From Candidatus Bathyarchaeota archaeon (lineage in GTDB: Archaea; Thermoproteota; Bathyarchaeia; Bathyarchaeales; Bathycorpusculaceae): a stretch of 64,000 bases of DNA. Below are positions 2-64,000 of the stretch, piece after piece (within the stretch, counting starts at the first letter, position 1; the number at the start of each line of letters is the position of its first letter). Position numbers and translations under genes: made by a program. The notes below the pieces were generated by a model that saw nothing but the letters and a program-made list of their open reading frames with translations, did not search any database and was not told where the DNA came from. The stretch spans positions 24,427 through 88,426 of the forward strand of contig CAVYHV010000015.1 of assembly GCA_963768425.1 (NCBI GenBank). Reading direction: 5' to 3'.

Positions 2-310
2 ATGATGCTTGCTGCAGATGAACAACATCAAGAATTCGGAGTTTTACGTGCTATCGGTGCCAAACCACGCTTTGTTGTGTCAGTTTTGGCGCTTCAAAGT
101 GCAGTTTTGCTTCTTTCAAGCTTCGGAATTGGAATATCTCTTGGAACTATCATAACTATTCTTATTTTGATACAGCAACCCATAGTCACAAGTTTCATGA
201 TTCTGGAAATAACGGGACTACTTTTCGTCGCGCTGGCAGGAATCCTGCTCTTGAGCCTTTACCCGGCGTTCAAGTTGGCGAGAGCTTCAGTTTTGAAAAT
301 TATCACCTAG
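2..310 (+). CDS. ABC transporter permease (FtsX-like) C-terminal part, 5'-truncated by window edge
   Basis: EFGVLRAIGAKPRFV motif followed by hydrophobic helices and a C-terminal LYPAFKLAR. Confidence 0.75.
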   Translation: MMLAADEQHQEFGVLRAIGAKPRFVVSVLALQSAVLLLSSFGIGISLGTIITILILIQQPIVTSFMILEITGLLFVALAGILLLSLYPAFKLARASVLKIIT

Positions 311-1000
311 CTTTTGGAAGGTCCTGTGGAAAAACTTGACGTTTTCTGTGTATATAGATAGTTGGTCTAGGAAGTTTTGCAGCTGCAATATGGGAATTAT
401 CGGGACTTCATAGTAAAATTTGAATGCACTGGGTACAAGCGACAAGACCGCAGGCATAAGCTTAGCTTCGCTCCAACATGCGCATTCAAGTTTTAACGCC
501 GGGTTAGGCAATGAATCTGCCAACGCGCGGGTGCGATTTACCTGCAAATCAACAATTCTCTTCAAAGCCGACGTCGCTATAGAGTGTTGCCAATGTTTGC
601 AGTCGATGCAGACAACCAAAGGTTTCTTGCAGCCAACGATATCCATTTCCCATCGTCTACCTGAACCCTTGAAATGAACGTTATTCGAAACAGCGTACCC
701 GTTCTTTTTTAGAGCGTAAGCCGCAATTTCTTCGAACTCTTGCCAACAAAGCATGTTGCTGATATACTCGATATCTGCACCTAATGACAGTGCTTTGACT
801 GCCATTTTAAGCCTGCTGCCTAGTTCTGGTTCAACACTGCCCTGTTTCAAATAAACAAGGCCTTCGTCTTGAAGTTTACATAGCAATTTTATCATGATAC
901 TTGTAGGCAGATGTGCTTCATTTTTGACAAGTTCAGTTAAAACAGGCCCTTCTTTCGTCAGTTTTAGAAGAGAAATTATCAGATTACGCTCAACACTCAC
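287..1000 (-). CDS. Mrr-like PD-(D/E)xK restriction endonuclease domain protein with N-terminal winged helix
   Basis: WQEFEEIAAYAL...EMDIVG...CIDCKHW catalytic-type motifs; 3' end overlaps the convergent permease. Confidence 0.7.
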   Translation of the reverse strand: MSVERNLIISLLKLTKEGPVLTELVKNEAHLPTSIMIKLLCKLQDEGLVYLKQGSVEPELGSRLKMAVKALSLGADIEYISNMLCWQEFEEIAAYALKKNGYAVSNNVHFKGSGRRWEMDIVGCKKPLVVCIDCKHWQHSIATSALKRIVDLQVNRTRALADSLPNPALKLECACWSEAKLMPAVLSLVPSAFKFYYEVPIIPILQLQNFLDQLSIYTENVKFFHRTFQKLGDNFQN

Positions 1001-2548: not shown

Positions 2549-2866
2549 TTAATGTTCTGGGTGCGTGTGGTTGAAGCCATAGTAAATGGCAACTATAAAC
2601 AAGGCAAGGAAGATGACTTCGATTATGGCTGCGATGATAACTGCTGTTTGGAAGCTTTGTCGTTCTTGGTTTGTGAGATTAATTTGTACAGTTGGCGATC
2701 CTTGGGTTGGATTGGTCCCTGGAATTATGTATTTATAAATTGAGTTATTCGCCGATAAAACTACGATGGCTGGAGGTATTGTCAAAGCTACGATCAGAAA
2801 GACTGCTGCAAGCGCAAAAACACGTTTTCTATGCATAAAAATCCAATATTTATAATTCTTTTTCAA
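2549..2866 (-). CDS. small two-helix membrane protein
   Basis: N- and C-terminal hydrophobic segments. Confidence 0.55.
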   Translation of the reverse strand: MKKNYKYWIFMHRKRVFALAAVFLIVALTIPPAIVVLSANNSIYKYIIPGTNPTQGSPTVQINLTNQERQSFQTAVIIAAIIEVIFLALFIVAIYYGFNHTHPEH

Positions 2867-2956
2867 GGTAATAAGCGTTAGGCTCGGGTGATACTGTTAA
2901 GTCTTTTTGTCATGAATCCTTTTAAGTAGTTTTGGGGGAACTTCTCTTTGAAAATG

Positions 2957-3310
2957 TTAATGACGCCACACTACCTCTAGTATCTGCCACAAAATTGTTA
3001 CGAAAATTATCGCAATACCAAGGTTCATCATAAAAGCAATTGCGATACCCCAAGGGATGCCCGCAAGCGGAAACGATGGCACAGGTCCCGAACTTGGACC
3101 AGTAAAGGAATATTGAATATATGTGTACACTACCTTTCCGAGGAAAGTGACGACGAACCCTTGCGACCAAGTGGAATTTCCTGCACCCGTATCCGTCACC
3201 GTAAATATGTTGTGGCACCCTGCTGGAACCCCCAAGGAAGTCATCGGTAAAGCTAATATTATCCCTACAAGCAAAACGAAAACGAAAGCTCTCATTCTCG
3301 CCCAGACCAA
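2957..3310 (-). CDS. small secreted or membrane-anchored protein
   Basis: signal-like N-terminus and C-terminal TM helix. Confidence 0.5.
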   Translation of the reverse strand: MVWARMRAFVFVLLVGIILALPMTSLGVPAGCHNIFTVTDTGAGNSTWSQGFVVTFLGKVVYTYIQYSFTGPSSGPVPSFPLAGIPWGIAIAFMMNLGIAIIFVTILWQILEVVWRH

Positions 3311-54159: not shown

Positions 54160-57106
54160 ATGAGGAAAACAAAAATGCAAAAACCAATTAGTAAATCTGT
54201 GACTATTATTTTCGCAATACTTTTTTCGATTTCAATGGCAGCTTCAATTATAATGATACCAAACGCTAACGCGCATACGCCATCTTGGAGTATTCCAGAA
54301 TATGCCTACATTTTCGCTGCGCCAAGCCCTATAGGGGTAGGTCAGACAACGCACGTTTACATGTGGCTTGACAGTGTTTTCGGTGCAGCAGGCACTGCAA
54401 CCGTTGGTACAAGTGAAGCATTGCTTTCAAACAATTACAGATTCCACAACTTTCAGCTCATCATTACTTCACCTTCCGGTACAAACACAACGGAAACCTT
54501 TGCTATCGTCTCAGACCCAACATCGTCACAACCCTATTCCTTTACTCCCAGCGCAACCGGCACGTACACCTTAACATTTAATTTTCCAGGACAAGGTTAT
54601 GCAGAATACGCTGGCCAGTATAATCCCACTTCAAATCTGGTTGGCGATACTTATCTGCCTTGCAGCGCGTCAACAACAATTACTGTTCAGTCAACGCCAA
54701 TAACAGGTACACCCGGTGCCCCGTTACCGACAGCTTACTGGTCATATCCAATATACGGTTCAAACTATGACTGGTACACGATTTCGTCAAACTGGCTAGG
54801 TTTTGGTGTAGGACTTTCCGCTTCTGTGCCCCCACAACCCTCAGGCTACACTAGCACTTCATTGTACTCCGGTGATGGCATAGGGCCGCTAACTTCACAC
54901 ATTATGTGGACAACGCAGACTCAAATTGGCGGGGAAGTCGGAGGAAACATGTTTACCAACGATCAGTCAGTCGGCTACTTCGAAGGCTCATCATATGCAC
55001 CCAGATTCCAAAACCCGATAATAATAGACGGATACCTATACTACACAGTAGTCGCATCATTCACTGGTTCGCCTCTCTTGGGCGGAAGTCGCTACCGGAC
55101 CAACCGTCTGCGTTAATCTTCAAACAGGAAAGCAGCTCTGGAGCAACCAGAATATTCCACAACTATTAATGGGCATGACACCGGACGTTTACGACCCTGA
55201 CCAACACGGAGTTTATCCGCCAATTCTAGTTGCAAGCGTTACTGCACCTGACGGTTCAACAACTTGGGAACTGTTTGATGGTTTCACGGGAGATGCACTA
55301 TTCAACGTAACCGACGTTCCTTCAGGCGCAGCAGCATGGGGTCCACAAGGTGAGTACCTGCAGTATATCCTCACTAATGATGGCACGCCGACAGCTCCAC
55401 AATGGTATTTGTCTGAATGGAACTCCTCCAGGCTTTGGTTATACGACATCAATCCATACACTGGCAGTGGAAGCGTCTCGCCGTCAATCCTAATTCAACC
55501 CGGCAACGGTTTCCTGGGCTTTCCTTTTAGCAGTGTGCTTCCTATTCCAATCACAGGCGAAGATGTGTTTTACCCAACCGGAGCAGTAGGATTCGTACCT
55601 TACGGTTCAGCACTTAATGTCAACGGAAACATCGGCATCGCGCAAGGCCATGCTATATCTGCATTTAATTCGCCAACAACTTATGACTGGAACATTTCGT
55701 TATCATACCTAAACGCACTACCAGTACCACCCCTCGTTATAACTCCCATCGGCCCCATGGGCGGCGTTCCCATAACGATCGGCGCAGTAGACTACGGAGA
55801 TATGATGCTTGCCTACACTACGCTCCCAACAGGTTACGCAGCAGACGGCGGAGGCGTCCCACAACCCCCATCATGGACAATGTACGGCATAAACCTCAAC
55901 TCATCTGTAGGCGCGGTCGGTTCTGTACTTTGGAGCAAGACGATTACAACGCCACCGGGAAATCTGACTATCTCATTTAGCGGAGCTGACTGGCAGACCC
56001 GTACCTTTGAAATGAACTATGAAGAAACTATGCAATGGACAGGATTCAGTCTAACAAATGGCGCACAGCTCTGGGGACCAACTCCATCTCAAACAGCCCT
56101 CGACTACTACGGCACACCGGGATCTCCCCCATTGCAAGCCTTCCTTGCCTACGGCACACTCTACAGCAGTTCATACGGCGGAATATGCTACGCCTATAAC
56201 GATCAAACTGGAAAACTATTATGGACATGGGGCAACGGTGGACCATCTCAACCAGACAACAGCACCTACGCAGGCTTTAACGGACCTTACGGTGTCTATC
56301 CAACCCAAATACAAGCTATTGATAAAGGCGTCGTATACCTAGCTACAGATGAACACACTGTAACCAACCCAATTTACGTGGGCGCAACGATAGTCGCCAT
56401 TAACGCCACCACAGGACAGCAAATATGGAGGCTTTCAGGATACCCAAGCGAATGGGCCGGGACTGGTAGCGCATGGGCTGTCGCAGCTGGCTACTTGACA
56501 TTCTTTAACGGGTACGACGGCCAAATCTACTCTGTAGGCAGAGGGCCCAGCGCAACAACAGTACAGGCACCATTGACCTCTACAACAGCCGGAGCCAACG
56601 TAGCCATACAGGGCACAGTGATCGACACTTCAACAGGCACACAGCAATCAACGCAGAAGGCTGATTTTCCCTACGGTGTTCCATGCGCATCTGACACAAG
56701 CATGCAGGCGTGGATGGGCCACGTTTACCAGCAAATGCCAGAACCGACCGATTTCACAGGCGTTACTGTAACGTTGACCGCTCTTGATCCAAACAACAAC
56801 ACTGTTCCCATCGGCCAAGCCACAACCAACGCTTATGGTCTATACAACTACCAGTGGACGCCACCAAATGTTCCAGGCAAGTACACCGTTACCGCAACAT
56901 TCTCAGGCACAAATGGTTACTATCCATCAAGTGCACAAACAACTATGATCGTAGGCTCGCCAGCAGCAACAGCCGCGCCAACAGCAACACCACTTAGCGG
57001 CGTCGCCACACAGGCTACACTCGAATACATAGGCATCGCAATCATAATCGTGATAATCATCATCGGTGCAGTACTCGCACTGCTGATGATGAGAAAACAC
57101 GCATAA
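54160..57106 (+). CDS. beta-propeller surface protein paralog 4, 1-nt insertion near 55091
   Basis: removing one base gives GGSATGPTVCVNLQTGKQLWSN, joining both ORFs; RKHA end. Confidence 0.85.
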
Positions 57107-57365: not shown

Positions 57366-57959
57366 TTGATGTTTTTCTATCGTATATCAGTATTCAATGT
57401 TGAATGCTTCTTGCACGTGAAAATTAAATATCCAAAACTCTCGTTGTTCATAATAAGTGTAATCTTAGTGTACTTCCTTTTTTCTGGATTAGCATACAAA
57501 CCCTTGCATGATGCCCTTATTTTCATGGGGTATTTTGGAACTTTTCTTGCGGGTTTACTGTATCCCTATGCATTAACTTCGTCGGCGGGTACAGCGATAT
57601 TGCTGATTCTCGCTAAAGATCAAAACTTCCTCTTAGCAGGAGTTATAGCTGGAGGCGGCGCTTTGATAAGTGACATGGTTATCTTCCTTTTTGTTAAACA
57701 TGGCTTTAATGATGAGGTACAAAAACTCTCAAAAGAAAAAGTTGTTCAAACTATTAATCGATGGATACCTGATTCCATTAGAGTCTACTTGCTTGCGACT
57801 TTTGCCAGTATTCTAATTGCATCGCCGCTTCCAACTGAAATTGGTATTATGCTAATGACATCAATAAAGAACATGTCTACCAAGAAATTCGTAATAATTG
57901 TGTATATCCTGCATGCAAGCGCAATCTTCATAATTCTTCTAATTGGCCGCATTGTATAA
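57366..57959 (+). CDS. multi-pass membrane protein (start possibly at GTG about 57417)
   Basis: several hydrophobic helices, SPLPTEIG motif. Confidence 0.65.
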   Translation: MMFFYRISVFNVECFLHVKIKYPKLSLFIISVILVYFLFSGLAYKPLHDALIFMGYFGTFLAGLLYPYALTSSAGTAILLILAKDQNFLLAGVIAGGGALISDMVIFLFVKHGFNDEVQKLSKEKVVQTINRWIPDSIRVYLLATFASILIASPLPTEIGIMLMTSIKNMSTKKFVIIVYILHASAIFIILLIGRIV

Positions 57960-58234
57960 TTTGGAGAGTCAAGACTTTTTTTGCTTAAGGGTAACAAAGT
58001 CAGGCCTTTTAATGTGTTTTTCTATAAGAGATAGTTTGAGTAAAGACGCCTCGTGCAGCGTCATATGTGCTTTTTGACTGCGCCAAACCCCGCTTGTGCC
58101 TTATAGCACCTAAAGATCTCTTAGCCAGGTTTTCACTTAAACGCTTTCAATTCACTTTGCCTTTGTCGTCTAAAAACTGATAAGTAACATATCCTCTATA
58201 CCATTAAGGCAAAAATGGAGGATGAGAAAATAAA

Positions 58235-58366
58235 ATGCCAAAATTAACCTTTACCGTAAGCCATGAAAACGACAAACGATTAAGAGAAAAAGTGCTTAAC
58301 AGAGGCGACCTATCCTGCATAATAAACGACGCATTAGACCAATACTTCAAGAAAGCGGAACAATAA
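58235..58366 (+). CDS. 43-aa ribbon-helix-helix protein (not in the ORF track)
   Basis: MPKLTFTVSHENDKRLREKVLNRGDLSCIINDALDQYFKKAEQ; alternating beta-strand then two helices. Confidence 0.65.
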   Translation: MPKLTFTVSHENDKRLREKVLNRGDLSCIINDALDQYFKKAEQ

Positions 58367-58642
58367 CAAAGAAACAACAATGACAGAAGCTCCGTAAACC
58401 TTGGAAAAAGAACGATTCACAGTCAAAAAACCCAGTTGAGGAAGTTCAAAAAGTTACTAATTGTCAAGTCTATATTACGTAGAAATAAAAGCCTTCATAA
58501 ATTCATTCGACATAGTCTGATAAAATAATTGCTCCACCGCAAACCGGACATCCTACTTAATTACGTCTTCTTAAATTTTAAAGATGTAAGTTATGAAGGG
58601 TTGCATAAATTATTAGAACAACTTGTTACACATATGTTTACT

Positions 58643-58891
58643 ATGAACAAATCAGAAGCTTTAGCGGTGTTGGGCGAGATTCGAGATGCCCTAAAAAACT
58701 CAGAGGTCTTAAGCTGCGTTTCCCTCGATGGCTCGCAGGTTTCTCACGTATCAACTGGTGGGTATGAAATAAAGATGAAATGCGAATTAGACAGCGTCTC
58801 AAAGGACGCAATAAACGGCGTACTGAAAAGAAATGAACTATACATGAAAGAACAAAACGGCTATGTAATTTTCCGTTCTCTTAAAGACTAA
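58643..58891 (+). CDS. small hypothetical protein, probable paralog of 60421-60666
   Basis: MNKSEALAVL.EI...Y.IK...L...N.L...E..GY.IF pattern shared with the paralog. Confidence 0.55.
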   Translation: MNKSEALAVLGEIRDALKNSEVLSCVSLDGSQVSHVSTGGYEIKMKCELDSVSKDAINGVLKRNELYMKEQNGYVIFRSLKD

Positions 58892-60420: not shown

Positions 60421-60666
60421 TTGTACGTTCTCAAGGGGCTGAGGGGTAACTTGTTCGATAGGAAAGAAGCTGTTGCTTTATTAAGAGAGTTAGGTTTAGA
60501 GCATTTAATACAACCTTCTTTCGTCATCCTCAAACAAAGAACACCTAACAGTTACCAATTAGAGATTAAAGGCGAATATGACCACGAAGAAATTGAGGTC
60601 TTTCTAAAGAAAAGAAACTTAACATATCAAGAGAAGAAAGACTATTTAGTTATTTTTAAGCCATAA
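60421..60666 (+). CDS. small hypothetical protein, probable paralog of 58643-58891
   Basis: DRKEAVALLREL...YQLEIKG...RNLTYQEKKDYLVIFKP. Confidence 0.6.
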   Translation: MYVLKGLRGNLFDRKEAVALLRELGLEHLIQPSFVILKQRTPNSYQLEIKGEYDHEEIEVFLKKRNLTYQEKKDYLVIFKP

Positions 60667-60686: not shown

Positions 60687-60812
60687 TTATCTAGTAACTT
60701 TGAAACAGCAGTTACAGTTCATACATGTGTAGGCTTCGACACGGAAAAGCTGAGTTTCCAACATTTTGTTAGGTTCTGCAACTTCTTCGCCACAGTTAGG
60801 GCATTTAGCCAT
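60687..60812 (-). CDS. 41-aa Zn-ribbon protein
   Basis: MAKCPNCGEEVAEPNK...YTCMNCNCCFK; same N-terminus as the Cren7-like gene. Confidence 0.6.
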   Translation of the reverse strand: MAKCPNCGEEVAEPNKMLETQLFRVEAYTCMNCNCCFKVTR

Positions 60813-61175
60813 TTTGATCTCTCGGTACGGTACAATGCCTTCCAATAGAGGAACAACTATTACTTGAAAATATGTTGGCACACTTTGATACAACAAACAA
60901 CCAGAACCAGGAGTGTGCGTTTTTTCTCTGCGCTCTTAATAATTTTTGCTTATTGTTTTCTTTATCTGTAGGAAAAAAACACTATAGGTCTCAAGAGGTC
61001 TTACTATGCAGTACTCAACATGCGAAATAAGTCGTCTCTTAAATGCAAGTTTTGGATATCATTTTTCTTAAAACCAAGCGTTTATACTATAAAACGATGA
61101 CACTTCTTTTTGGTTTACAGTTTGCTTTGCAATACAAGACCTTGATCGCAAGGTCGTCTATCTGTCGTCTATCTG

Positions 61176-61691
61176 TTAATAGAGCGAAGCCACGATTGCA
61201 GTTGTGATCTCTTGAATTTGTGGAACCTCTGTTTGTATTTGAGAAATAAGTAGCTGCAGGTCTTTGTTATCGCTAGTTTTTACCGCGCATATTAGGTCGT
61301 AGGGTCCGAAGACCGTATCAGCCGACAAGACTTTAGGTATACCTTGAAGCTTTTCTTGGACTAGTTCAAGATTTCTAGGTTGAGTATGCAGGAGTAGGAA
61401 AGCATACGGTTCCTCAGCAAAAGATTTGCCTTCTGAGATTACAATAAGGGTTTCCGTCTTGTCAATCATTGCTCCTTGAGCAGAAATTGTTCTAATTGGG
61501 TCGAACCATTTGCTGATAAATTCGTCAAGGTTTTTTAATCCGCGTAGTTGGATAAGAACTTCAGCAGGACCAAGAAGCAAGTATATATCTTTCTTGGATA
61601 GACCAATTTTAATCAACTCATCCAAAACTTTGGTTTTAGCGCCCACTTTGCAAGATAACGTATTGCAAGATAATATCATATATACCTTCAT
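61176..61691 (-). CDS. stand-alone tandem Lrp/AsnC ligand-binding (RAM) domains, no HTH
   Basis: two LLGPAEV / VFGPYDL RAM motifs. Confidence 0.75.
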   Translation of the reverse strand: MKVYMILSCNTLSCKVGAKTKVLDELIKIGLSKKDIYLLLGPAEVLIQLRGLKNLDEFISKWFDPIRTISAQGAMIDKTETLIVISEGKSFAEEPYAFLLLHTQPRNLELVQEKLQGIPKVLSADTVFGPYDLICAVKTSDNKDLQLLISQIQTEVPQIQEITTAIVASLY

Positions 61692-61811
61692 AAAGTGGTC
61701 AATAGTATATTGACATAATCAGCTTGATAAGCCTAACGTAATTTTGACTTTAAGAAAGACAAGATAGCACACTTATTCTTGCCAATACGAATGTAATGTC
61801 CGAGTTGGACT

Positions 61812-61836
61812 TTTGGGCTGGTGTGTTGGTTGTAAC
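61812..61836 (-). repeat. 25-bp exact duplicate of the RNase P RNA 3' end
   Basis: TTTGGGCTGGTGTGTTGGTTGTAAC identical to 63690-63714; 4 of the next 6 nt also match. Confidence 0.9.
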
Positions 61837-62297
61837 ACACCTATTTTGGCGAAATTGCCACAGTTTCCCCCTCTTTTTACTCTTGACCAACTAAAAGATA
61901 GTTCTTAATGGAAGCTTTTTCTTTAATGATTTCAACATCCCCTCTTTTACTCGTTTTTTTCGGGCTACTTGTTGACTATCTTAAGCACACGATAGGATAC
62001 TCTCCTCGGTCAGAACTATGATAATTGAGGGTCAAGCGCGCGCAACGAAGACTTGATAGAACTATAACTAAATTTAGGGAACTCAAATAAATACAATGAC
62101 ATTTTTCAACGTTGAGCTCCTAAAGGAGTTTTAGCGAAACATTACACACCCTCAAAGAGTTAGGAAGTTACATGAAATCTATGACTAGGCAAATTTCAGA
62201 TTACGCGATTAATAATATCTTTTTTTAGAAAACATGTTGCGCCTAATTCAGTCAACAAAAAGCTTAAGTAGTTATTCAAAACAAAAGGGACTAAATA

Positions 62298-62717
62298 GTG
62301 TTCAAGATGACTAATCCTACACCTTTAATAAGTGATTCAAACAGATTAAAATCACAAGGGGCAGCACAGATTTTATCAATCGCCATATTCATAGCAGTGA
62401 TTGTCTTCTCTTTAGCCGCATACTATTATATTAAACGCCCTTTTTGGGTTGCCATCTCCGCCGGTGCCTTAGGCGGATTAGTGCACGAAATGGTTCAAAG
62501 CGGCGGTAAGTATGTTCTTCCAAACACTGACGAAAATGGAGACTTCATGTTGGGTGGCTTAGTTGGATTACTTGCAGGAGGAATAGCTGGAGTGTTAACA
62601 TATGAAGCACTTCTAGGAACGACTCCCATTCCATTTCCGGCAATAGCTGTTACCGCCTTCTTGGCTGGAGCAGCAGTAAAAGGAATAGCAGATGCGGCAA
62701 ATCCTCCAAAAAAATAG
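62298..62717 (+). CDS. small Gly/Ala-rich membrane protein
   Basis: four hydrophobic segments, AGALGGLVHE motif. Confidence 0.65.
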   Translation: MFKMTNPTPLISDSNRLKSQGAAQILSIAIFIAVIVFSLAAYYYIKRPFWVAISAGALGGLVHEMVQSGGKYVLPNTDENGDFMLGGLVGLLAGGIAGVLTYEALLGTTPIPFPAIAVTAFLAGAAVKGIADAANPPKK

Positions 62718-62997
62718 AGCGTTTACTAGTTAAGCATTACAAAACACAAGAGCTCAAACTGCCTTCTGCAAACTGCACTATGTGTCATCTTAAGTCTGCA
62801 GTTGACTCTTTTAATAACCGATTTTTCCATGAGGAATTACCGCATTATTTTTAGTTTAAAGAACTTGTAAAGTCCAAATCAACAAAATATTAATGTTTGA
62901 GTCCAAAAAGTTTTCCAACAATTTTTAGCGTCACCATATCCCAGGGTGGGAAAGCTTTTATGCTATTCAAAACAAGATAAAATATAGGGGTTTTGAA

Positions 62998-63552
62998 ATG
63001 TCTGTAGAGTCGGGAAAAAATTTGGGCGGCATCGGTTCCATATTCTTGGTGATACCAATTCCATTTCTGAGCATCGTTGGCATAATACTAGTCCTTTTTG
63101 GAATGAACAACTTATCTAAAGCGTACAACGACCCAAGCATTTGGCAAAACACGCTCTATGCTGTGGTCTTCGGAATAATAGGAATAATTGCAGCTGGCTT
63201 AACTCTTGTCTCGCTGTTTTTCGGAGGGATTTTCGCTAGCGGTGTTTTTGTAGCGGGCACAGGATTAGCAGGATTTTTTGCAGGACTCATCGTATTTCTG
63301 GTGGTAGCTTTCATATTCTATATACTTGAAGCTATCTATATCAGAAGAGCATTTGATTCTCTCGCAAACAAATCTGGAGTTGGGTTATTTAGAACTGGAG
63401 GATTGCTTTTGCTAATCGGTGCGGTTCTTACAATAGTTTTGGTTGGTTTGTTCTTAATTTTCATCGCGTGGATACTGATACTTGTAGCTTTCTTCCAGAT
63501 ACCAACAAGTTCAATGCCTCCGCAGTCTCAGATGCCACCGCCACCAATGTAG
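62998..63552 (+). CDS. DUF996 family membrane protein
   Basis: LGGIGSI...IVG.ILV..G...LS..Y....I.QN; F.TGGLLLLIGAVL.I..VG....IAWIL..VAFF. Confidence 0.8.
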   Translation: MSVESGKNLGGIGSIFLVIPIPFLSIVGIILVLFGMNNLSKAYNDPSIWQNTLYAVVFGIIGIIAAGLTLVSLFFGGIFASGVFVAGTGLAGFFAGLIVFLVVAFIFYILEAIYIRRAFDSLANKSGVGLFRTGGLLLLIGAVLTIVLVGLFLIFIAWILILVAFFQIPTSSMPPQSQMPPPPM

Positions 63553-63694
63553 TGACCTAAATTTTCTTTTTTTTCTTCCATGTTCTTAGTCGTTAATTTT
63601 TCTTGTGTTAGAGCGCACTAAAAAGAGTTGTTTGGCTTTTGCGTTTGGTGCGTTGGGTTTTTGAAAACCTCTGTTGTTTACAACAAAGATTTGG

Positions 63695-64000
63695 GCTGGT
63701 GTGTTGGTTGTAACCCGCCTTCTGTTGTCTGTGGCATTCGGCTAATCGGGCTACCCGCGCCTTGGGTAGAGTCCTCATTGGCGACTGTTTGCCCTTTCCA
63801 CTTGCAGGACGGCCGTTTCACCGGTTCCATGTTGGCGCACTCGACCTCACTAAGGCGTCATCGACAAGTCCAACTGGACGTTTCGTTTCTGCTCCGTTGC
63901 TAACGCTCTCGCGTTGCTCCTTTTGGGGAGCTGCAATTCTACACGTGGGCGGAGTTTCCTCAGACCCATCATTTCTTGGGTCCGAAAGCCACACACCAAC
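63695..64000 (-). ncRNA. rnpB: archaeal RNase P RNA (5' end at or just past the window edge)
   Basis: minus strand: GAGGAAACTCCGCCC (63947-63961) pairs with ACAGAAGGCGGGTTA (63711-63725) as P4; CGGTGAAACGGCCGTCC motif; P1 GTTGGTGTGTGG / CCAACACACCAGC. Confidence 0.92.

Follow-up and report, generated by a model that had tools for sequence, protein, structure and literature searches.

Introduction

Genomic islands of the Islander/TIGER class, which occupy the 3' ends of transfer RNA (tRNA) and transfer-messenger RNA (tmRNA) genes, were reportedly described in Williams 2002. These islands and comparable proviruses encode a tyrosine integrase beside one of their attachment (att) sites and carry the 3' end of the target, which regenerates the gene upon integration; the displaced fragment of the original gene forms a direct repeat on the far side, and tandem arrays as well as decayed remnants occur (archaeal cases are reviewed in PMC8371274 and PMC6563490). 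Here, we describe an islet with the same layout at a different target. It lies directly downstream of rnpB, the RNase P RNA gene, in a 64,000-nucleotide stretch of a Candidatus Bathyarchaeota archaeon contig (CAVYHV010000015.1), hereafter called the window, and elements which share all of these features are found behind rnpB in related genomes. The islet itself does not contain an integrase gene, whereas 12 units of the relatives encode more than 250 amino acids of an integrase in one piece. With a probability of roughly 85%, the islet is a decayed, integrase-less remnant of elements for which the 3' end of rnpB serves as chromosomal attachment site.

In a review of archaeal tyrosine recombinases and a survey of thaumarchaeal integrated elements, the targets given are tRNA genes, protein genes and intergenic regions; RNase P does not occur in either of them (PMC8371274, PMC6563490). 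Full-text literature searches did not find rnpB as an attachment site, no published archaeal report turned up, and the retrieved papers on Bathyarchaeia viruses and archaeal proviruses do not describe the rnpB site. A comparable target is known from Enterococcus faecalis, where attB of phiEf11 lies in ffs, which encodes the 4.5S RNA, and the block of identity at the gene end spans about 27 nt (PMC12540744). As for the rnpB elements, a stable non-coding RNA gene beyond tRNA and tmRNA serves as attachment site; however, phiEf11, a bacterial prophage, encodes its own integrase and occupies another RNA gene. The same paper, published in 2025, presented ffs as a novel target and named only tRNA/tmRNA and csRNA as non-coding RNA precedents (PMC12540744). 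SSV-type integrases, also referred to as 'suicidal' or partitioning integrases, are encoded by genes that are split at the att core upon integration (PMC7253208; PMC8371274). Two integrase types found in the relatives, A1 and B, resemble them in this respect, but the N-terminal piece is very short in these elements, and the window lacks an integrase.

Integron cassettes, which depend on intI, attI, a promoter and attC sites, are unlike the islet: no integrase is encoded at its site, its repeats are copies of the rnpB end instead of attC sites, and the unit consists of two genes with long spacers. Cis-mobilisable elements (CIMEs) are att-flanked, recombinase-less derivatives of integrative and conjugative elements, which are found at the fda locus of Streptococcus thermophilus. 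Like the islet, CIMEs are short units bounded by attL and attR that lack integration and transfer genes and reside at a hot spot of intact relatives. The islet differs in its archaeal host, its RNA-gene target and its ends, which resemble two different element types.

Duplication of the rnpB end in the window

The source genome (G000; all other G-numbers denote genomes of the comparison and L-numbers denote loci or metagenome contigs) is a metagenome-assembled draft of 2.96 Mb with 33 contigs and a completeness of 91%. Its archaeal RNase P RNA gene is located on the minus strand at 63699-64004 (C15:88125-88430), the 5' end being 4 nt past the window edge, and matches Rfam RF00373 with 191.4 bits over its full length and with 180 bits for the portion inside the window. 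The full-length score is within the range of 170-199 bits obtained for the relatives, and the gene has thus been regenerated intact.

The initial annotation had claimed that the end of rnpB and its flank are exactly repeated in direct orientation 1878 bp away. A repeat search agrees with this claim: the 25-nt sequence TTTGGGCTGGTGTGTTGGTTGTAAC, which reads GTTACAACCAACACACCAGCCCAAA in rnpB sense, is present in two identical copies, 1878 nt apart from start to start (Table 1), and comprises the final 16 nt of rnpB and 9 nt of flank, the rnpB part being the 3' strand of P1 and the last bases of P4. A match was found in none of 100 shuffled sequences, and no further core copy is present in the 2.96-Mb genome when up to three mismatches are permitted. 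The repeat was also said to degrade where P4 begins. Indeed, to the left of GTTAC (in rnpB sense), the gene reads GGCGG, the 3' strand of P4, while the distal copy reads GGTGT, and the identity ends there. The GGTGT of the distal copy creates a palindrome with a 7-8-7 structure, GGTGTGT-TACAACCA-ACACACC (61820-61841), which is formed by the distal core and the adjacent arm.

Copies of the rnpB end in related genomes

The genus (Bathyarchaeia, 'Bathy-6') is represented by 120 species genomes in the collection, and rnpB is detectable in 98 of them. For comparison, rnpB and 10-12 kb of downstream sequence were used from 94 loci of the genus; the relatives are all different species with an rnpB identity of 77-90%. 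Searches with the own 21-nt rnpB end, allowing up to three mismatches, revealed 46 direct downstream copies in 35 of the 94 loci and a single reverse copy in 860 kb of searched sequence. When up to five mismatches are allowed, 64 closed units are found in 46 loci, among them 44 of the 73 loci with at least 8 kb of downstream sequence. The closed units are 0.6-8.6 kb long (median 2.3 kb), 33 of the 64 are shorter than 2.5 kb, and similarity to integrases could be detected in only 3 of these 33. The same architecture is present in the single-contig genomes G003, G014, G069 and G087. The downstream regions of the relatives, whose comparison had been recommended in the initial annotation, contain alternative cargo at the same site. 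A counterpart of either of the two islet genes is absent from all 93 remaining rnpB loci, which contradicts the possibility, raised in the initial annotation, that the relatives all have these genes without the repeat.

Two bases of the core, which follow GTTAC in rnpB sense (63705-63706), vary among species (AA, TG, GT, GG, AT and others). The opposite strand of P1 is constant across species, and the copies of these two bases mostly agree within one genome. The variability could result from element-borne copies that overwrite the end of rnpB.

Integrases beside rnpB

Approximately 30 loci of the genus possess a tyrosine integrase (PF00589) or a stub of it directly beside rnpB, and similar arrangements are found on metagenome contigs, as the search suggested in the initial annotation revealed. 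Three arrangements, A, B and C, can be distinguished; these types rest on tblastn, Pfam and the arrangement of the genes rather than on a phylogeny. Type A integrases have a length of about 420 amino acids and are encoded on the same strand as rnpB. In subgroup A1, the reading frame is open through the core (G008, G058, G068, G105), and members of subgroup A2 (about 385 amino acids, same strand) have their own ATG around 100 nt past the core (G048, G049, G095, G111). Type B integrases of about 306-340 amino acids are likewise encoded on the rnpB strand with a frame that is open through the core in G003; frameshifted or truncated versions occur in G097, G112b and G125. Type C integrases (about 390 amino acids) contain an N-terminal zinc ribbon and are encoded on the opposite strand, with the 3' end of the gene located about 45 nt from rnpB (G072, G076, G118c, G121 and partial copies). 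PF00589 was detected for types A, A2, B and C, and the residues R, K, HxxR, H and Y are invariant in the alignment of type A. Stubs or frameshifted copies of integrase genes were found in G010, G019, G021, G073, G100, G106, G109 and G118a.

The order rnpB, integrase, cargo and direct copy of the rnpB end is found in G003, G008, G058, G068, G072, G076, G095, G097, G105, G111, G112b and G121. In G030, which belongs to another family of the same order, a type B-like integrase starts 6 nt past rnpB. Public records that match the integrases of the relatives are all metagenome-assembled genomes (MAGs) of Bathyarchaeia/Bathyarchaeota from peat, bog, soil and sediment, including 'Bathy6' isolates and MCG-6 AD8-1. 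The exact 25-mer is present in 36 JGI metagenome contigs, 29 of which have rnpB on its left side; a mostly type B-like integrase is located directly to the right of the 25-mer in 22 of these 29 contigs and in 24 of all 36. None of the contexts in this metagenome scan matched the flanks of the islet in G000, and it provided neither empty-site nor attP evidence for the islet. No relative of the type A integrase was found in IMG/VR. For the integrases of types A1 and B, the nearest solved structures by sequence are the Xer-like recombinases 4a8e and 5hxy; a match to the SSV1 integrase was not obtained up to E = 1 in a PDB sequence search.

Since the relatives show direct copies of the rnpB end together with integrases beside rnpB, the reading of the islet as a product of integration is supported, and the same holds for the site-specific integration at the rnpB 3' end that the initial annotation had put forward. 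Judged from these sequence comparisons, rnpB is the predicted attB of several element families in the genus.

Arms of the elements and split integrase genes

The arms and the near sides of the units were assigned to classes by short motif matches, which left many units unclassified. Arms of class P1 end in ...AAATTACTAAGCCCAAAGGCGG and encode the conserved peptide MS..KKLLSPKAGY.QHTSP; in 14 of 29 P1 arms, an ATG located 12 or more codons upstream opens a frame that leads into the core, compared with 3 and 1 for the other two frames. In types A1 and B, the far arm contains the start codon and the first 5-21 codons of the integrase gene, whose frame continues across the att core. When the far arm and the near side were joined in silico, complete open reading frames (ORFs) were obtained for G003 (337 amino acids), G008 and G068 (420 amino acids each) and G058 (403 amino acids). 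A natural junction of arm, core and integrase is found on L176, a metagenome contig without rnpB, and is open for 318 amino acids. Because both the rebuilt and the natural junctions give ORFs that are open across the core, types A1 and B appear to behave like partitioning integrases of the SSV type. In types A2 and C, the integrase gene is not split.

Arms of class P2 are non-coding, have a length of about 43 nt and a consensus near AAAAAGGGGAAAYTGTGGCAATTTCGCCAAAATAGGTGY, and are conserved despite unrelated adjacent cargo. In class P3, the arm is a displaced piece of rnpB that is 50-112 nt long. Near sides of type A or B are combined with P1 arms in 14 units, and type C is combined with P2 or its variant P2v in six; inspection by eye revealed the pairing of C and P2 also for G072, G119 and G122. 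There are few hybrid units, and G000 is one of the A'/P2 hybrids.

Content and ends of the islet

The 1853 nt between the two core copies contain a gene for a DUF996 protein, a gene for a membrane protein of 139 amino acids and about 880 nt of non-coding DNA (Table 1), and their G+C content is 38.8% compared with about 44% for the genome. That this interval holds only two membrane-protein genes and no recombinase had been stated in the initial annotation, and both Pfam and tblastn agree: no recombinase was identified in the islet by Pfam or by tblastn with five integrase queries (best E = 1.2), and relaxed tblastn searches did not reveal an integrase pseudogene either. The islet would therefore not be able to move by itself. 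The DUF996 protein has four paralogues elsewhere in the genome (34-43% identity), and the 139-amino-acid protein is found in 5 of 119 other genomes of the genus with an identity of at most 49%.

On the rnpB side, the islet starts with a 63-nt arm whose homology to G095, G049 and G111, which possess intact integrases, and to G021, which carries a stub, extends through own-locus position 371-378. It stops just before the position of the integrase ATG of the relatives, and the integrase gene has been deleted in G000. In G002, L138 and L147, a displaced rnpB end is likewise followed by this leader, which travels with the integrase; therefore, the leader is part of the element rather than of the host DNA. 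The 57 nt after rnpB had also been considered as integrase coding sequence, which was rejected, as this region is the leader upstream of the ATG in subgroup A2.

At the other end, the 43-nt arm next to the distal core is 95% identical to the arm of G072, whose unit encodes an intact integrase of type C, and 78-88% identical to the arms in G014, G114, G118a, G119 and G122, in which the adjoining cargo is unrelated. An arm profile built without G000 detects the distal arm with an E-value of 2e-17; the sole other significant match in the genome is the core copy on the rnpB side (E = 8e-4).

Table 1. Position of the rnpB locus, the islet and the adjoining features in the window.
Feature	Position	Strand	Remarks
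rnpB	63699..64000	-	predicted to act as attB, 3' end regenerated by insertion; RF00373
Proximal core copy (attL core)	63690..63714	-	GTTACAACCAACACACCAGCCCAAA; exact repeat
rnpB-side element-derived arm	63627..63689	-	leader preceding the type A2 integrase start codon in relatives; 85-92% identity
Cargo: DUF996 family membrane protein, 184 aa	62998..63552	+	Pfam PF06195, E 4.3e-29
Cargo: 139-aa glycine-rich membrane protein	62298..62717	+	3-4 hydrophobic segments; weak DUF4257-like match only
Non-coding 43-nt arm (class P2)	61837..61879	-	abuts the distal core; conserved across relatives
Distal core copy (attR core), displaced rnpB end	61812..61836	-	exact repeat; palindrome with arm
Flank past the distal core	61733..61811	-	start weakly like the post-core region of the G010 integrase locus
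Lrp/AsnC-type regulator gene	61176..61691	-	Pfam PF01037; outer side of the islet
Zinc-ribbon protein	60687..60896		low-G+C zone
81-aa protein	60421..60666		low-G+C zone
p120	58529..58891		low-G+C zone
Block of 155-199 nt	58189..58385		no clear ORF
197-aa membrane protein	57366..57959		low-G+C zone

The DNA outside the islet is shared with some of the relatives. From 25-50 nt past the distal core onwards, the sequence is again homologous to that of G002, G118a and G107, and this homology runs through the gene of the Lrp/AsnC-type regulator; the encoded protein is 80-83% identical and its gene is found in the same position and orientation in these three genomes. The DNA between rnpB and the AsnC gene is wholly different in G000, G002, G118a and G107, which indicates a variable occupancy of the site: the interval comprises 0.75 kb with a VapBC-like gene pair in G002, 7.1 kb with a frameshifted type A integrase in G118a and 9.7 kb in G107.

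Origin of the islet

Tyrosine recombinases would recombine the copy of the rnpB end that is carried by the element with the chromosomal rnpB. The copy of the element would thereby complete rnpB, and the original end would be pushed to the far side, which gives rise to the direct repeat. For the islet in G000, the ends resemble different element families and only the leader of the integrase gene survived; the simplest history would therefore be a tandem integration with a subsequent deletion. A type C element would have integrated first, followed by an A2 element, and the later deletion would have eliminated both integrase genes (A2 and C) together with the inner junction, leaving a fused unit. 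The odds are about even between such a composite of two tandem neighbours and a single decayed element of a rarer kind that combines type A with a P2 arm, since the associations between arms and integrase types are not absolute.

Some observations weigh against these proposals. A truly empty rnpB site or a strain without the islet was not found among the 94 loci of the genus, and the identity of all 25 core positions as well as the good preservation of the arm would likewise be compatible with a unit that is still competent for recombination. For the composite origin in particular, P2 arms are found together with a type A integrase in G118a as well, and on L139 the reading frame continues from a P2 arm into the integrase, which is of type A.

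Alternative explanations

Given the identical cores and a distal arm that is conserved to 95%, the islet might be a still-mobile, integrase-less cassette, which is moved in trans by the rnpB-specific integrases of incoming elements, with the site acting as an accretion platform similar to integrons or CIMEs. In this case, the rnpB end would be a platform shared by several unrelated integrase lineages that use one core, small integrase-less units, with genes for membrane proteins or VapBC pairs, would be exchanged in trans, and the islet of G000 would be a live cassette; if true, the platform would be the archaeal counterpart of cassette arrays. The large share of units below 2.5 kb, nearly all of them without similarity to integrases, and small recurring cargoes such as the VapBC-like pairs and the p120 gene would be in agreement with this proposal. 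However, many of the small units retained integrase stubs or leaders (G021, G073, G019 and G000), as is predicted for decay, and no identical cassette was found in two contexts. In addition, the own genome lacks integrases of the rnpB-linked kinds; the nearest homologues are encoded elsewhere and share only 25-44% identity with them. The presence of the arms is not a sign of selection, because the definition of a unit retains the core-adjacent arms in any case. Both the mobility of the islet in trans and the existence of a shared platform with the islet as a live cassette are therefore considered unlikely. The locus had been called a second cassette-loading site in the initial annotation: integration at rnpB is supported, whereas cassette loading is only a possible reading, and serial integration and decay of integrase-bearing elements fit the data at least as well. 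That a recombinase other than that of the window's other site was responsible is plausible.

Homologous (Campbell-type) recombination of a circular DNA bearing a piece of the rnpB end would not require a site-specific recombinase and is conceivable for the VapBC-like cassettes of seven relatives, which are bounded by displaced rnpB fragments of 50-112 nt. For the islet, this is highly improbable: the shared stretch has a length of just 25 nt, its end coincides exactly with that of the class P2 arms in elements that possess an integrase, and the 7-8-7 palindrome is typical of core sites of tyrosine recombinases. As the genome is a draft assembled from a metagenome, a chance match, a local duplication or an assembly artefact has to be considered as well, but it is hard to reconcile with the shuffled sequences, none of which gave a match, and with the duplicates in 35 loci, which show a strict orientation bias and include complete one-contig genomes. 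Furthermore, the repeat is below the usual word size of assemblers, and a contig of 127 kb runs through both copies, which makes this the least probable of the explanations. Decay of elements that had integrated at the rnpB end is thus the preferred explanation for the islet.

Surroundings of the islet and further observations

The start of the flank past the distal core weakly resembles G010 (positions 281-318 versus own-locus 2163-2200, 92% match), and this flank may be an older stub. G010 had been considered as an empty site due to the resemblance of its flank to the distal flank of G000; this was rejected, as G010 carries a frameshifted type A integrase. A low G+C content of about 37% extends from the distal copy to about position 57100 of the window. 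The p120 gene, the genes for the 81-amino-acid and zinc-ribbon proteins and the gene for the 197-amino-acid membrane protein, which are located in this zone, have homologues inside or beside rnpB-linked units of other genomes, which suggests that the zone between 57100 and 61800 is older accreted element material without recognisable cores. Whole-genome core and arm-profile searches did not detect further cores or arms in it. A block of 155-199 nt without a clear ORF (Table 1) is conserved to 72-83% in G101, G092, G002 and G003; it is reversed in these relatives and located directly before the att copy in G003.

Five other tyrosine integrase homologues are encoded on other contigs of the own genome (C14:260427-261599; C30:105944-106831 and 110302-111183; C8:108268-109045; C28:18132-19115), and no tRNA gene is present within a few kb of any of them.

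Integrase-less cassettes composed of a MazE/AbrB and a PIN gene (VapBC-like) are found behind rnpB in seven relatives: G002 (L035), G047 (L093), G060 (L092), G077 (L065), G099 (L080), G123 (L076) and G130 (L094). With their long rnpB fragments, these cassettes represent another kind of unit than those with the 25-nt core.

Contigs often end at the att core or about 100 nt from it, as seen for the end of contig C4 of G023 and the metagenome loci L162, L163, L167, L181, L185 and L188. G023 contains two identical rnpB copies on different contigs (C4 end; C13:2418-2718). Evidently, assembly graphs fork at the rnpB end, as would be expected if populations differ in what comes after rnpB. L131, the end of a contig from a Bathyarchaeota MAG, carries two full-length rnpB matches in opposite orientation (176-473, plus strand; 2861-3161, minus strand), which surround a type A integrase. 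This arrangement could be the result of an inversion between att sites or of an assembly join.

Significance

RNase P RNA is encoded by an essential, highly conserved gene that is present in a single copy. In the archaeal mobile-element literature searched, the targets of integration are limited to tRNA genes, protein genes and intergenic sites. About half of the species in one abundant lineage of soils and sediments carry insertions in the last 25 nt or so of rnpB, and at least three integrase arrangements share one core, which widens the known target range. The islet in the window is an ordinary decayed example of integration at the rnpB end. In these genomes, the 3' end of rnpB has repeatedly been overwritten by element-borne copies, and the copies of the rnpB end provide a simple marker for mobile elements of Bathyarchaeia, few of which have been described.

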